DNA from: a phage
Direction: 5' to 3' (one strand)
NCBI GenBank assembly: GCA_037431425.1
Contig: GCA_037431425.1_4129.1
DNA: 64,000 nt
The first letter of the stretch is position 1; every line of letters begins with the position of its first letter. Below, one piece after another: positions 6,844 to 63,865 of this stretch. The notes beneath the pieces are model-generated. The model made no database searches, had not been told where the DNA came from, and was given only the letters and a program-made list of their open reading frames with translations. Made by a program: the position numbers and the translations under genes.

Positions 6844-6871
6844 TTGACTAAATAGTTCAGTGCTGTATAAT
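6844..6871 (+). promoter_or_regulatory. promoter TTGACT-N16-TATAAT (spacer AGTGCT variant)
   Basis: near-identical to 7253 and 7633 promoters (CTTGACTAAATAGTTCAGTxCTGTATAATG). Confidence 0.65.
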
Positions 6872-6902
6872 GTTTGTATCTTAACTTATATGGCAACTTG
6901 AT

Positions 6903-7256
6903 ATGTTTAATGAATATGAAGAAGCAATAAAACGCAACCTTGAAGATTATAAATTCCAATTTTATATTTGGGATGAACTGATGAGATTGTGTTTACAGTG
7001 GATGGAAAATGAAGAAACTCCTGACCAACGAATTGTTATATTAAACATCTTGTTACATAAAGATCTTAGTTCAATTAATATTGAAGTTTCTACTTATGTA
7101 GGAGAAGATTATAATCCCTATATTTCATATACTTCCCCTGTACCAAAGACAGAAGAAGAATATTTTCAAATGAGTACTGTACAAGAACCATTGTTCACTT
7201 ATGAGTTCTATAAGTACTTGATTGGTGAATTCAAAAAAATGCGAATTAATTCTTGA
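6903..7256 (+). CDS. EE-x-FQ-x-ST motif family protein, 117 aa
   Basis: motif TEEEYFQMSTV; stop TGA lies in the -35 of the next promoter. Confidence 0.7.
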   Translation: MFNEYEEAIKRNLEDYKFQFYIWDELMRLCLQWMENEETPDQRIVILNILLHKDLSSINIEVSTYVGEDYNPYISYTSPVPKTEEEYFQMSTVQEPLFTYEFYKYLIGEFKKMRINS

Positions 7257-7280
7257 CTAAATAGTTCAGTACTGTATAAT
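7253..7280 (+). promoter_or_regulatory. promoter TTGACT-N16-TATAAT with AGTACT in spacer
   Basis: CTTGACTAAATAGTTCAGTACTGTATAATG read directly. Confidence 0.7.
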
Positions 7281-7312
7281 GTTTGTATCTTAACAACAGA
7301 AGGTATATTGAA

Positions 7313-7552
7313 ATGGGTAAGTATTTTGTGAGTTATAGTTATAATGTATCACGAAAGATTCCACGCGGTGACGGAATGGGATGGTCTTATGATGCATATA
7401 CTTTAAATGAGTCATGTATCATCGAATTACAAGAAAAAGACCTTGACATTTTAAAAATCAAACAATATATTCTTGATGTTGAATTGGCACATCGTACTGA
7501 TACCTATCCAGATGTAAACAACATCAGCATCTTAGTACTAACCAAAGTATAA
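7313..7552 (+). CDS. hypothetical protein, 79 aa
   Basis: track ORF trimmed to ATG 7313 with AGAAGG SD. Confidence 0.6.
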   Translation: MGKYFVSYSYNVSRKIPRGDGMGWSYDAYTLNESCIIELQEKDLDILKIKQYILDVELAHRTDTYPDVNNISILVLTKV

Positions 7553-7632
7553 GATAAAAAGAACTTTACTAAATAATTCCACTGGAGATTAATATGTTTA
7601 AAGATGAACGTCCAGATTTGTAAAAAAAGTAC

Positions 7633-7661
7633 TTGACTAAATAGTTCAGTACTGATATAAT
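7633..7661 (+). promoter_or_regulatory. promoter TTGACT-N17-TATAAT with AGTACT in spacer
   Basis: third copy of the CTTGACTAAATAGTTCAGTACTG box. Confidence 0.7.
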
Positions 7662-7667
7662 GAATTC

Positions 7668-8006
7668 CACAATCAGACGTATATGGTGTAAGTTACGTCG
7701 ATGCTATCCAGAACAAGATCTCTGGTACTCTAGGAAGTGGTGAATGTTAACCTAGACGGGTTTGATAATTGGACGATAGGCAATTATTACTTGACTAGCA
7801 GGTTGAAACTAGAGGTGACAGTCCTTCACCAAACTGGAAAGCCGGATGGACTTTTATTTAAAAGGGTAAGGCGTGGAAATATGTTTACTGTAGTTGCTTT
7901 TAGTAGCCTGTACGCCCCACGTCAAGGTAGTCGAAAGGCAAGTTAAAACGGGTGGTTATAAAGCTGAATTAACAGCGGCGTTTAAAAGCGTCACCATCCA
8001 TTTTTT
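7668..8006 (+). ncRNA. candidate structured RNA of about 340 nt, class unknown
   Basis: strong promoter, no SD-led ORF, visibly higher GC than flanks, local hairpins (GGTGA-CAGTCCT-TCACC; CTAG..CTAG), ends in weak hairpin plus T7 run. Confidence 0.4.
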
Positions 8007-8023
8007 TAATTAAAGTTGGCTAT

Positions 8024-8401
8024 ATGAGTGTTAAAGACATTTCAAAGTATGAAGAGTTTCTTAAATCATTTTTGAATTCAGAATTAACGACAGACCACAC
8101 CAATAACTGGTGTCAAGATAATCCAGGAATTCGTATTTTCAATGGATATGGCGAATCATTTCTTATAAATGACGATGAAATCGTTTTTGAATCACTTGAA
8201 GAAATAAAAAGGACAAATAACACTTTACGTGATATAATAAATAGTATAAATGCTCAATACATTACCTTTCAGTTAAGTGCTGATGAAGCTGATGAATTCC
8301 AGAAACGCACAGTATATGAAAATGTGTTTCCACATGAATTAAATTCTGTGATATTTGAAGTGTTGGATAAGGTTTTTTCTGAAAATAGTACTGGACAGTA
8401 G
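8024..8401 (+). CDS. EE-x-FQ motif family protein, 125 aa
   Basis: motif ADEADEFQKRTV. Confidence 0.7.
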   Translation: MSVKDISKYEEFLKSFLNSELTTDHTNNWCQDNPGIRIFNGYGESFLINDDEIVFESLEEIKRTNNTLRDIINSINAQYITFQLSADEADEFQKRTVYENVFPHELNSVIFEVLDKVFSENSTGQ

Positions 8402-8420
8402 TATTCAGTACTGATATAAT
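8392..8420 (+). promoter_or_regulatory. promoter TGGACA-N17-TATAAT with AGTACT in spacer
   Basis: -10 ends 6 nt before tRNA-Ser(GCU) 5' end. Confidence 0.55.
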
Positions 8421-8426
8421 TAATTT

Positions 8427-8513
8427 AGTGAGTTGGATGAGAGGTTGAAATCACTACCCTGCTAAGGTAGCATATGCGAAAGCGTATCGTGGGTTCAAAT
8501 CCCACACTCACTG
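8427..8513 (+). tRNA. tRNA-Ser(GCU)
   Basis: acceptor AGTGAGT/ACTCACT, anticodon stem CTACC/GGTAG, loop CTGCTAA, long variable arm, T-arm GTGGG-TTCAAAT-CCCAC. Confidence 0.9.
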
Positions 8514-8670
8514 TAAATTGTTCCAAAAAGAATTGAGTACTAAGATTTGTAATAACTTGTCTTAGTATAAGGTTTTGTGTATTCATGTGATGTTCGAGTA
8601 TAATGATTCTATCTGATATTGTTATTATATGAGTTCTAACGATAATGAAACACTAGGAACATCAAAATTC

Positions 8671-8746
8671 GGGCCATTAGCTCACGCTTGGTTAGAGCAG
8701 CCCCCTCATAAGGGGTTGGTACGGTGTTCGACTCACCGATGGCCCA
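8671..8746 (+). tRNA. tRNA-Met(CAU), elongator type (could be Ile2/lysidine)
   Basis: acceptor GGGCCAT/ATGGCCC, anticodon loop CTCATAA, T-arm CGGTG-TTCGACT-CACCG, CCA encoded at 8747-8749. Confidence 0.88.
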
Positions 8747-62329: not shown

Positions 62330-62388
62330 TTGCACCGTACTGATAAAAGCGTATAATGTTTTACATCGAGAGCGGGAGCACTTCCCGC
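62330..62388 (+). promoter_or_regulatory. conserved promoter plus 5' hairpin cassette, copy 1
   Basis: TTGCAC-N16-TATAAT, then TTTTACATCGAGAGCGGGAGCACTTCCCGC (stem GCGGGA/TCCCGC). Confidence 0.7.
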
Positions 62389-62412
62389 TACACATTAAGA
62401 GAGATTAAAACG

Positions 62413-62775
62413 ATGGCGACTCAAATCAATAAAATTATTGCTAACCTGGTTAACTTCCGTGAAGAGATGAAAGGTCTTCCGGCTGAAACGGTAAAAATTC
62501 ACATTTCAGCTTATCGGGAACTTATTGCAATGTTACCGCTTAAGCGTGAACAATACGCCGCTACCGTGATGCTTGATGCGATGATCAATAAGATGATCGC
62601 CAGTGATTTAACGATGGTTTATCAGTACATGGGCGAAAATTTCGCGGTGTCTGGTAAGCCAGTACCAGGGATGGCAACTACTGAGGAATTGCACGGTTTA
62701 AATTTAAAACAAGATGCATGGGATAATATGCCTCGTTTCCTGGTATGGGCTGACAGTGGCAAAATTTACAAATAA
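62413..62775 (+). CDS. hypothetical protein, 120 aa
   Basis: trimmed to ATG 62413 (MATQINK) downstream of the cassette; higher GC than the rest of the window. Confidence 0.75.
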   Translation: MATQINKIIANLVNFREEMKGLPAETVKIHISAYRELIAMLPLKREQYAATVMLDAMINKMIASDLTMVYQYMGENFAVSGKPVPGMATTEELHGLNLKQDAWDNMPRFLVWADSGKIYK

Positions 62776-62789
62776 GTTTAATAAAGTAC

Positions 62790-62875
62790 TTGCCAACTAA
62801 GTTTAAAAGCGTATAATACTTTACATCAGGTGCAACGGGAAGTTTAAAAACTTCCCTATAGGGGAATAGTTCCCC
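62790..62875 (+). promoter_or_regulatory. promoter plus 5' hairpin cassette, copy 2 (variant)
   Basis: TTGCCA-N16-TATAAT; hairpins GGGAAG..CTTCCC and GGGGA-ATAGT-TCCCC. Confidence 0.65.
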
Positions 62876-62896
62876 ACTATATAAGAGGATTAAAAA

Positions 62897-63136
62897 ATGG
62901 CTAAATCAAAAATGTTCTTAGGTCACAAAAACAAAACTCATTGGAATGTAAGCCTTTGGATTAATAACGATGAATCATTATACCGGTTGGCCCTGGACTT
63001 TATTGCCGCTAATACTAATCGCAATGATGCGGCCCGTCATATGATGTTATTTTTAGAACAGACTGGACAAGATAAAACACCGGACGGATTCAAATATAGC
63101 ACTACTGCGATCCGTGCGGCGATGGTTGGAATGTAA
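62897..63136 (+). CDS. hypothetical protein, 79 aa
   Basis: AGAGGA SD. Confidence 0.75.
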   Translation: MAKSKMFLGHKNKTHWNVSLWINNDESLYRLALDFIAANTNRNDAARHMMLFLEQTGQDKTPDGFKYSTTAIRAAMVGM

Positions 63137-63149
63137 TAGAATTTATTTA

Positions 63150-63184
63150 AAGTACTATCGCAAAAAATGATAGTACTTTATAAT
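63150..63184 (+). promoter_or_regulatory. AGTACT-based hairpin abutting TATAAT
   Basis: AAGTACTATC..GATAGTACTT stem followed directly by TATAAT. Confidence 0.5.
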
Positions 63185-63221
63185 AGTGTTTTATTCATAC
63201 ACCAACGATAAGGGCAATAGC

Positions 63222-63488
63222 ATGAATATTAAGTATTTTGCGACGCGTGAACAAGCTCGGAAGGCGGCGAAAGTGGAAGGTGCAACGTTTAAAGATATGG
63301 GCATACAATCGGAACGTGGTAAACGTTGGGCCATTGTAAAGCGTAGTACAGCCAGATCATTACAGTACTGGTTAGCGGCTTTAAAAAGTCCTGCTAGTGT
63401 ATCGCGTCGAGTGGTAGAAATAAAGCTCGACCGTAAGGGGAATCGTGTTACCGTGTACCGTACTAAAAAGATAGCAGTACTTGAATAA
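63222..63488 (+). CDS. basic hypothetical protein, 88 aa
   Basis: trimmed to ATG 63222 with AAGGG SD. Confidence 0.7.
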   Translation: MNIKYFATREQARKAAKVEGATFKDMGIQSERGKRWAIVKRSTARSLQYWLAALKSPASVSRRVVEIKLDRKGNRVTVYRTKKIAVLE

Positions 63489-63495
63489 AAAGAAC

Positions 63496-63554
63496 TTGCA
63501 AACTATGTTTAATGGCGTATAATGTTTTACATCGAGAGCGGGAACACTTCCCGC
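63496..63554 (+). promoter_or_regulatory. conserved promoter plus 5' hairpin cassette, copy 3
   Basis: TTGCAA-N16-TATAAT, then TTTTACATCGAGAGCGGGAACACTTCCCGC; near-identical to copy 1. Confidence 0.7.
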
Positions 63555-63575
63555 CTATAAACTGGAGTAATAAAA

Positions 63576-63806
63576 ATGACTAATATGTATATGACTGAAG
63601 TTAAAACCGTAAAAGATACTACCACGAATAAAACTACTTACTTACAGCGGATCTGCGGTGTATGGCAACGTATCAGCAAATCAAAGTACTATAAATTAAC
63701 ATCATATGCCAATCGTTCGGATTCATTCAGTACTGAAATAAAAGGTAATAAAGTACACCAATACGGCACTTATTATTATTATAGCCTGGACGCGATTGCA
63801 GTATAA
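63576..63806 (+). CDS. hypothetical protein, 76 aa
   Basis: GGAG SD. Confidence 0.7.
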   Translation: MTNMYMTEVKTVKDTTTNKTTYLQRICGVWQRISKSKYYKLTSYANRSDSFSTEIKGNKVHQYGTYYYYSLDAIAV

Positions 63807-63836
63807 GTAGTTTACAAATCTTTACAATTGCCGGTA

Positions 63837-63865
63837 TTGACTTAAAATGTCAGTACTGGCATAAT
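63837..63865 (+). promoter_or_regulatory. promoter TTGACT-N17-CATAAT with AGTACT in spacer
   Basis: read directly; transcribes GC-rich dyad copy B. Confidence 0.55.

Follow-up and report, generated by a model that had tools for sequence, protein, structure and literature searches.

The DNA analysed here, a window of 64,000 nucleotides (contig GCA_037431425.1_4129.1 of GenBank assembly GCA_037431425.1), comes from a jumbo coliphage of the Asteriusvirus (121Q / PBECO4 / Rak2-like) group. It contains a class of promoters in which the palindrome AGTACT occupies a fixed position in the spacer between the -35 and -10 hexamers, and this class, together with the many other copies of the palindrome along the genome, is the subject of this report. 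The window is 97.7% identical to ph0011 over 40 kb and 86-91% identical to 121Q, PBECO4, UE-S1 and others. It holds many short rightward open reading frames (ORFs), six tRNA genes (the only matches in an Rfam scan of the window), the gene of a phage RpoD-like sigma factor (20761-21726) and seven paralogous RCC1-like genes on the minus strand (47291-55969); beyond 56 kb begins a dense early region of short ORFs. Comparisons were made with the whole ph0011 genome (348,217 bp), about 50 kb of 121Q, three 50-kb pieces of RaK2, and further pieces of GAP32, XbC2, PA5oct and one Vibrio jumbo phage. The register statistics refer to distinct promoter-like sites pooled from the window, ph0011 and RaK2.

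Promoters with AGTACT at a fixed distance from the -35 hexamer

Ten promoters had been singled out by a sequence-only reading of the window, and each holds a TTGACA-like hexamer, a spacer of 16-17 nt and a TATAAT-like hexamer. At nine of them 10-12 of the 12 hexamer positions match the sigma-70 consensus; the tenth, at 56014, is weaker (-10 TACGAT). As that reading stated, AGTACT stands intact in the spacer at 7253, 7633, 8392, 24139, 36725, 56014, 61028 and 63837, and is replaced by AGTGCT at 6844 and by AGAACT at 28094. The sequence TTGACT or TTGACA, nine nucleotides, AGTACT, a single G and TATAAT is found at 7253..7280 (TTGACT; AGTACT at 7268-7273; GTTT after the -10), at 24139..24166 (TTGACA; 24154-24159; GTTT), at 36725..36752 (TTGACA; 36740-36745; GTTT), which is kept in 121Q as CAGTACTG, and at 61028..61055 (TTGACA; 61043-61048; GTTC), downstream of which about 850 nt are free of ORFs. 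The two altered copies have the same layout: 6844..6871 (TTGACT, 9 nt, AGTGCT at 6859-6864, G, TATAAT, GTTT) lies upstream of an ORF at 6903-7256, and 28094..28121 reads TTGACA, 9 nt, AGAACT (28109-28114), G, TATAAT. Since the orthologous promoters of 121Q carry an intact AGTACT, as does that of ph0011 in the case of 6844, the variants are, on this comparison, recent and lineage-specific decay. The promoter at 63837..63865 has a 17-nt spacer (TTGACT, 9 nt, AGTACT at 63852-63857, GG, CATAAT), in which the TG of the motif acts as an extended -10. The site at 56014..56042 does contain AGTACT (56027-56032), but 7 nt after the -35 and before a poor -10, so that its membership is doubtful. All of these lie on the plus strand, and the class promoters of the window precede ORFs or a tRNA cluster.

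A second copy of the palindrome, which the sequence-only reading had missed, shares its last T with the first T of the -35. It is present in the window at 7628, 8387, 62325 and 62785, and in 31 of the pooled promoters. The full element can thus be written AGTAC-TTGACA-N9-AGTACT, with two dyads 20 bp apart on either side of the -35. It is complete at 7628..7661 (+), where AGTACT (7628-7633), the -35 TTGACT (7633-7638), 9 nt, AGTACT (7648-7653), GA and TATAAT (7656-7661) follow one another and are identical in 121Q, and at 8387..8420 (+), where AGTACT (8387-8392) overlaps the -35 TGGACA and is followed by 9 nt, AGTACT (8407-8412), GA and TATAAT; the latter promoter heads a tRNA Ser-Met-Asn cluster (8426-8826). 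Further promoters had been overlooked at 62330, 62790, 63156 and, on the minus strand, 62048. Two of these have the upstream copy only: 62325..62357 (+), with AGTACT (62325-62330) sharing its T with the -35 TTGCAC, a 16-nt spacer, TATAAT and GTTTTACATC, and 62785..62817 (+), with AGTACT (62785-62790) sharing its T with the -35 TTGCCA and TATAAT at 62812-62817. At 63151..63184 (+) two copies lie 21 bp apart (63151-63156 and 63172-63177), followed by T and TATAAT, with a weak -35. The minus-strand promoter at 62021..62048 shows a minor register, TTGACT-C-AGTACT-N9-TATAAT, in which the copy (62036-62041) comes directly after the -35.

The distance of the spacer copy from the -35 is the constant of the class. 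AGTACT had been described as ending 1-5 nt upstream of the -10, most often 1 nt; cases of 1 nt are common, but what stays constant is the 9 nt that follow the -35. With the copy in that position, 28 sites have spacers of 16 nt, 27 of 17 nt, 2 of 18 nt and 7 of 19 nt, leaving 1, 2, 3 and 4 nt to the -10, respectively; in five further cases, all with 17-nt spacers, the copy starts 10 nt after the -35 and ends 1 nt before the -10. The 69 class promoters with a copy at 9 or 10 nt therefore divide into 28 with spacers of 16 nt, 32 of 17, 2 of 18 and 7 of 19. Because the copy starts 9 nt after the -35 at any spacer length, its anchor is the -35 and not the -10. The window has 6 occurrences of TTGAC-N10-AGTACT where shuffles give 0.04, and TTGACW-N9-AGTACT occurs 23 times in ph0011, against 1.05 expected from the real density of the motif; in the same genome every other gap of 0-15 nt between TTGACW and AGTACT is found 0-3 times. 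An extended -10 is ruled out as the cause of the register for half of the class: a TG at -15/-14 is present in the 17-nt subset (AGTACTGnTATAAT) and missing in the equally large 16-nt subset, where the TG misses that register in 28 cases and 2 have it at the position that gives TGn. AGTACT marks a distinct class of promoters.

The class was also said to carry a conserved GTTT as its initial transcribed sequence. GTTT follows the -10 in four of the ten promoters, with 61028 close to it (GTTC), and not in most of them. R-T-W-T directly after the -10 is found in 13 of 19 class promoters of RaK2 (4 of 44 others) and in 7 of 21 of Asteriusvirus (9 of 105 others). Since it adjoins the -10 directly, it is probably a discriminator rather than a transcribed sequence.

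The distribution of the class is restricted. All 24 promoters of ph0011 with the 9-nt register lie either at 3.7-23.4 kb, in the early region of short ORFs, or at 300-330 kb, in the tRNA region and at two single sites; the transcribed (+) strand carries 22 of the 24, and 21 lie between genes. None was found in the 275 kb of middle and late (replication and structural) genes of ph0011, despite a 4-6-fold enrichment of AGTACT there. RaK2, a Klebsiella phage of another genus with a sigma factor that is only 43% identical, has the same architecture within its own early region, with the consensus aaAAGTAC-TTGACA-acataatc-CAGTACTG-TATAAT-GTaTtaCAT and a variable N9. The composite element is also present in other viral contigs of 346-366 kb, in which AGTACT reaches 20-25 times expectation in the flanks. 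On these comparisons the class is conserved across phage genera, and from its location we take it to consist of immediate-early sigma-70 promoters of Rak2-like jumbo phages. A different group of contigs from IMG/VR (L017, L020-L022, L024 and L028; 4.8-29 kb, 40-44% GC) carries GAGAAAGTACTTGACAAATGAGAAAAGTACTATATAAT, with two copies arranged around a -35 in the same way; the enrichment of AGTACT in them is only 2-4-fold.

Other sigma-70 promoters of the window lack the motif, as noted earlier for 5570, 17801, 19163 and six terminator-promoter cassettes. Decayed look-alikes in the register of the class occur at 5714 (AGTACG) and 17801 (AGTAGG). The cassettes (29863, 32657, 33995, 38907, 42311 and 42882) read GGTTGACTTCGGTCAGCC-TTTTTTGT-TATAAT, with the -35 inside the terminator stem and the T-run serving as spacer, and the design is also found in RaK2 and CBB. 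Judged by this recurrence, at least one further conserved class, that of the terminator-promoter cassettes, exists among the motif-less sigma-70 promoters.

The palindrome along the genome

The presence of many copies of the palindrome outside promoters, already noted from the window, extends to the whole genome, with about 750 copies of which about 80% lie inside ORFs. No hexamer of the window is more over-represented than AGTACT (184 against 19 expected). In ph0011 it occurs 748 times against 91 expected, with enrichment in each 10-kb bin; the early region is the densest, at about 60 per 10 kb. The true unit is the 8-bp CAGTACTG (168 against 4.0 expected, or 41-fold); variants with one mismatch in its core are only 0.5-2.5-fold represented, and its flanks are symmetric and A/T-rich. 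Within ORFs the three reading frames are used equally, and there is an excess at synonymous sites: Ser-Thr is encoded as AGT-ACT 306 times against 93 expected, and the other two frames give 167 against 47 and 124 against 21. Equal use of frames and the synonymous-site excess rule out codon or amino-acid usage as the source of the motif.

Comparison with 121Q bears on how the copies are maintained. 121Q retains 66 of 82 aligned copies (80%) unaltered, whereas the proportion is 44% both for hexamers in general and for those of the same composition, and per-base identity is 0.95 in the motif and 0.88 in its flanks. By this measure the palindrome is under purifying selection, also at synonymous sites. 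Enrichment is seen in RaK2 (119 against 12 expected), GAP32 (114 against 14) and the Xanthomonas phage XbC2 (181 against 17), and is missing in the Pseudomonas phage PA5oct (3 against 14) and the Vibrio phage 2.275.O (9 against 16). The enriched phages of the clade infect Klebsiella, Cronobacter and Xanthomonas; this independence of host genus suggests that the reader of the motif is encoded by the phage.

The palindrome is also built into terminators. In an intrinsic terminator at 2979..2996 (+) the stem is CCCAGTACTAGTACTGGG, followed by a T-run, and further stems of the form CCAGTAC...GTACTGG with a T-run lie at 46563-46584, 48485, 49907, 51131, 52392, 53577 and 54818, one downstream of each of the seven RCC1-like paralogues. 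The same kind of terminator occurs in phage CBB (AGTACTGGTGAAATATCCAGTACTgTTTTT).

Three islands of the window are free of AGTACT: 12802-16112, 20436-22808 and 40828-42510 (P = 7e-5, 1e-3 and 8e-3, respectively, at the motif density of the window). The first falls on a virion Ig-domain gene of the minus strand, the second on the sigma gene together with sequence that has no alignment in 121Q, and the third on an accessory module. Absence of the motif may mark DNA that was recently acquired or swapped.

What may read the palindrome

A palindrome between the -35 and -10 had been proposed as the site of a repressor or of a MerR-type activator. Placement for a repressor is sensible: CAGTACTG is symmetric, has A/T flanks and lies at both edges of the -35. 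A dimeric phage-encoded protein reading CAGTACTG would bind the promoter dyads, which, being 20 bp apart, would lie on one face of the helix around the -35. With dyad centres near -37 and -17, the bound protein would compete with sigma region 4 and with extended -10 contacts. The outcome would be a class-specific switch, most plausibly shut-off of the immediate-early promoters, from which the motif-less sigma-70 promoters (the cassettes and the promoters of the gene at 16089) would escape. The same recognition event would take place along the whole genome, at about 750 copies, with a second purpose. The operator reading is favoured because of the fixed distance from the -35 over variable sequence, the pairs at 20 bp, the restriction to early and tRNA regions and the conservation across genera; consensus hexamers and optimal spacers mean that no activator is needed. 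We therefore give tentative preference, short of confidence, to a class-specific operator switch, most likely for early shut-off, worked by a symmetric protein that reads CAGTACTG. That a protein binds the motif, that its binding represses and which protein it is are each things that we infer.

The sequence offers a speculative candidate for this protein, encoded at 16089..16673 (+) behind the motif-less consensus promoters 15965 and 16030. It corresponds to gp156 of 121Q and ORF234 of RaK2, and has 194 amino acids and a predicted PD-(D/E)XK restriction-endonuclease fold, in which both the core fold and the D...(D/E)XK catalytic triad are present; its alignment contains an invariant D98...E107-x-K109, and it belongs to no Pfam family. 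The protein stood out among window proteins when these were compared with RaK2, GAP32, XbC2 and PA5oct. It is 97% identical within Asteriusvirus, 73% in RaK2 and 64-66% in GAP32, CBB and Erwinia, Serratia, Yersinia and Xanthomonas phages, a conservation that far exceeds that of the sigma factor in the same genomes. For PA5oct, tblastn gave no match, whether in the phage collection or in the 50-kb piece of that phage used for local comparison. Dimers of the restriction-endonuclease fold read short palindromes sharply; the PD-(D/E)XK fold also includes junction resolvases. Co-distribution with the enrichment makes the protein a speculative lead as reader of CAGTACTG and nothing firmer.

Other proteins were considered as readers and rejected. 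The DUF262/GmrSD_N protein at 39988-41205, taken as a ParB-like binder, is found only in ph0011 and GAP32 and is hence an accessory gene. Phage methyltransferases belong to generic Dam-like and C5 families, which are uninformative on specificity; the RaK2 paper reports CpG methylation only. Among 19 ORFs of the window scanned with Pfam none showed a DNA-binding domain, and PHROGs annotated none of 10 others as a regulator or as DNA-binding. The DUF262 gene is the first of an accessory pair (39988-42300) present in this lineage (ph0011), distantly in GAP32, and absent from 121Q. Its 405-amino-acid GmrSD_N/DUF262 (ParB-like) product has a weak DndB match, and it is followed by a gene for a 300-amino-acid protein that is annotated as an N6-adenine methyltransferase in ph0011.

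Several observations weigh against an operator switch, or against the candidate as its reader. Promoter copies may decay while the promoter persists, as at 6844 and 28094. With about 80% of the copies in ORFs and spread evenly along genes, the motif goes beyond promoter control alone, and no clear helical phasing is seen among non-promoter copies, only a small promoter-derived peak at 20 bp. Some of the class promoters (6844, 7253 and 7633) are paralogous, and hence not all are independent. No helix-turn-helix regulator conserved in the clade was found and no DNA-binding protein was identified; an HTH_37 regulator beside the sigma gene of XbC2 was ruled out, having no homologue in ph0011 or RaK2. 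The only transcriptome found in the literature is that of the distant PA5oct, with none for the clade. As for the candidate, its intact nuclease residues fit poorly with 750 genomic sites, unless these are protected or the protein is not a simple cutter, and a Vibrio phage with a 35%-identical homologue has no enrichment of the motif.

The strongest alternative treats the promoter copies as passengers. AGTACT or CAGTACTG would be kept genome-wide for a reason other than transcription (as a self-mark, as a target of modification or repair, or through repair-driven biased conversion of the kind proposed for the cyanobacterial HIP1), and the constancy of the register would be due to origin from a single ancestral promoter module, together with tolerance of the position. 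The enrichment in every 10-kb bin, late genes included, speaks for it, as do the even presence of most copies in ORFs in all frames, the motif in terminator stems (CBB included), the loss of promoter copies in single lineages and the tracking of the clade by a very conserved nuclease-fold protein. One-base deviants of the 8-mer cluster at its outer positions, as for HIP1, the iterated palindrome of cyanobacteria, in which such deviants are reportedly concentrated at the outer positions. However, 11-12 spacer positions are possible, and yet in two genera about 60% of spacer copies keep a distance of exactly 9 nt from the -35 although the sequence in between varies; the paired 20-bp arrangement around the -35 recurs; and sigma-70-like sites of the late region lack the register though the motif is enriched there. 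Nor are the transition neighbours AGTATT and AATACT depleted, as would be expected of a deamination-repair (Vsr-type) drive; only AGGACT and AGTCCT are. We regard a passenger origin as somewhat improbable, though deserving of serious attention.

RNA polymerase itself might instead read the copies, possibly after ADP-ribosylation by the phage, which would give a stronger promoter with no separate factor, in the manner of the extra conserved positions in T4 early promoters. Spacers of 17 nt place the TG of the motif at -15/-14 as an extended -10, often beside the weaker CATAAT, the upstream copy adjoins an A-rich UP-like tract, ph0011 encodes a putative ADP-ribosyltransferase, and RpoD-like promoters with UP elements have been predicted for the related CBB. 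But in 16-nt spacers, half of the class, the TG is out of register while the distance from the -35 is still kept (28 against 2), and it is this that makes a polymerase contact less likely. One hexamer would moreover have to serve two different contacts of the polymerase, the hexamers are already consensus and the motif is abundant away from promoters. An element of this kind is unlikely.

A more specific proposal unites the operator with the candidate protein: CAGTACTG would be a genome-wide self-mark read by the 194-amino-acid protein, which, made early, would shut the immediate-early promoters through the two dyads at the -35 and mark, protect or process the 350-kb genome at about 750 sites. 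We consider this combination decidedly doubtful.

Host SlmA, the nucleoid-occlusion protein, whose box is GTGAGTACTCAC, offers another reader; the copies would let the phage block cell division, and SlmA would have to bind TTCAGTACTGAA. The AGTACT core is common to both, and a T and an A lie two positions outside it, as in the SlmA box. However, the GTG...CAC flanks of that box are not matched around AGTACT, GAGTACTC occurs 4 times against 2.5 expected, whereas CAGTACTG occurs 168 times against 4, C is depleted just after the core (+1), and the enrichment persists in the Xanthomonas phage, all of which makes SlmA very improbable. A LexA box was also dismissed: TACTGTATAAT resembles a half-site by eye, but has no CAG partner at the right distance. 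Least credible, and close to negligible, is the MerR-type activator that would remodel the spacer: the palindrome between the -35 and -10 is the only point for it, and it is contradicted by hexamers that are consensus, by optimal spacers of 16-17 nt in 55 of the 69 class promoters with the copy at 9 nt and in 5 more with it at 10 nt (MerR promoters have over-long spacers of 19-20 bp with the dyad centred in them), by a 6-8 bp dyad at spacer positions 10-15 of 16-17, proximal to the -10 and not centred, and by general family scans of window ORFs (19 by Pfam, 10 by PHROGs), in which no MerR-like protein turned up.

Neighbouring elements and known systems

Other features of the window, and one of a compared phage, lie outside the class. 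The seven RCC1-like paralogues (47291-55969, minus strand) stand in tandem and have 368-449 amino acids; annotations in relatives call them RCC1-like or 'DNA condensation' proteins. Upstream of each is a AAATATAGTATAAT element that lacks a -35, with a strong Shine-Dalgarno sequence, unlike both sigma-70 classes; the element may be a middle or late promoter. The class promoter at 61028 points into about 2 kb packed with repeats (60300-62350), which contains no ORF of at least 45 codons except one of 69 codons on the minus strand (60825-61034) and has no Rfam match. It holds a 31-bp unit repeated 2.7 times (60341-60423), 10-bp repeats (60464-60532), an iteron-like array of GGCTAAAC/GGCTAGAT units of about 8 bp (61458-61578) and many copies of CAGTACTG. 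The region could be an origin, a genome-end region or a set of non-coding RNA genes. A megablast search with 40000-64000 also matched 158 records, among them Phapecoctavirus, Justusliebigvirus, Vequintavirinae and Campylobacter and Acinetobacter phages, so some short segment of it is shared far beyond the clade. In the Vibrio phage 2.275.O (L029, 45-95 kb) no palindrome is enriched, but there is a marked excess of the asymmetric 8-mers CGCAACTA and CCGCAACT (about 20-fold) and of TGTTTTAT; these may be a different promoter or regulatory motif.

The arrangement has partial counterparts among known systems. The 'stoperators' of mycobacteriophage L5 gp71 and the operators of phage P1 C1 are likewise short sites that lie over the -35 region of an early promoter and recur in many copies elsewhere. 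They are, however, asymmetric and intergenic, number in the tens and belong to temperate phages, whereas here a perfect palindrome recurs about 750 times, about 80% of it in ORFs, in a lytic jumbo phage. The asymmetric, intergenic and transcription-oriented character of L5-type stoperators is thus lacking. SPO1 TF1 and phi29 p6 resemble the proposed function, being phage proteins that bind genome-wide and also silence early promoters of the host polymerase; they read DNA shape or modified bases with loose preference, in contrast to the sharply defined 8-bp palindrome at a fixed register. No homologue of either protein came to light, none having been searched for.

HIP1 (GCGATCGC) of cyanobacteria is also an 8-bp palindrome that is over-represented tens-fold in all frames, with deviants at the outer positions and an unsettled function, and the present motif shares with it a palindrome of at least 8 bp that is spread genome-wide over all frames. 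HIP1 is, however, chromosomal, GC-rich and tied to cognate methyltransferases, and has no fixed place in promoters, whereas the palindrome described here keeps a fixed promoter register. We know of no AGTACT methylase in these phages. The early promoters of T4, like those of this class, are strong promoters of the host polymerase in a large lytic phage, with extra conserved positions and an A-rich upstream tract; unlike AGTACT, the extra positions of T4 form no palindrome and are not repeated along the genome.

For CBB and GAP32, members of the same clade, RpoD-like early promoters with UP elements have been predicted, and these resemble the class in their short early ORFs, consensus hexamers and UP-like tract (PMC5259590). 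Unlike the class described here, the published promoter list of CBB contains no AGTACT element (PMC5259590). Neither the palindrome nor its enrichment is described in the papers on CBB, RaK2, Sharanji and PA5oct, and a search of the literature library for AGTACT together with jumbo phages found nothing. The kinds of element are themselves already known; what appears to be new is that early promoters of this clade carry an operator-like dyad tied to an iterated palindrome.

Rak2-like jumbo phages (121Q, PBECO4, phAPEC6, RaK2, GAP32 and CBB) are under development for therapy, and their programme of gene expression is essentially unknown. The rule AGTAC-TTGACA-N9-AGTACT-N1-2-TATAAT would single out their immediate-early promoters across genera, apart from at least one other sigma-70 class, and would link them to an 8-bp palindrome of which selection keeps about 750 copies in each genome. 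If it does act as an operator, the palindrome would provide a ready handle for engineering jumbo phages and for timing synthetic cargo in them. Should it be read as a self-mark, the HIP1 puzzle of cyanobacteria would have a functional counterpart in a virus. The rule makes two questions testable in these phages: what shuts off early transcription, and which factor recognises a palindrome iterated along the genome of a virus.

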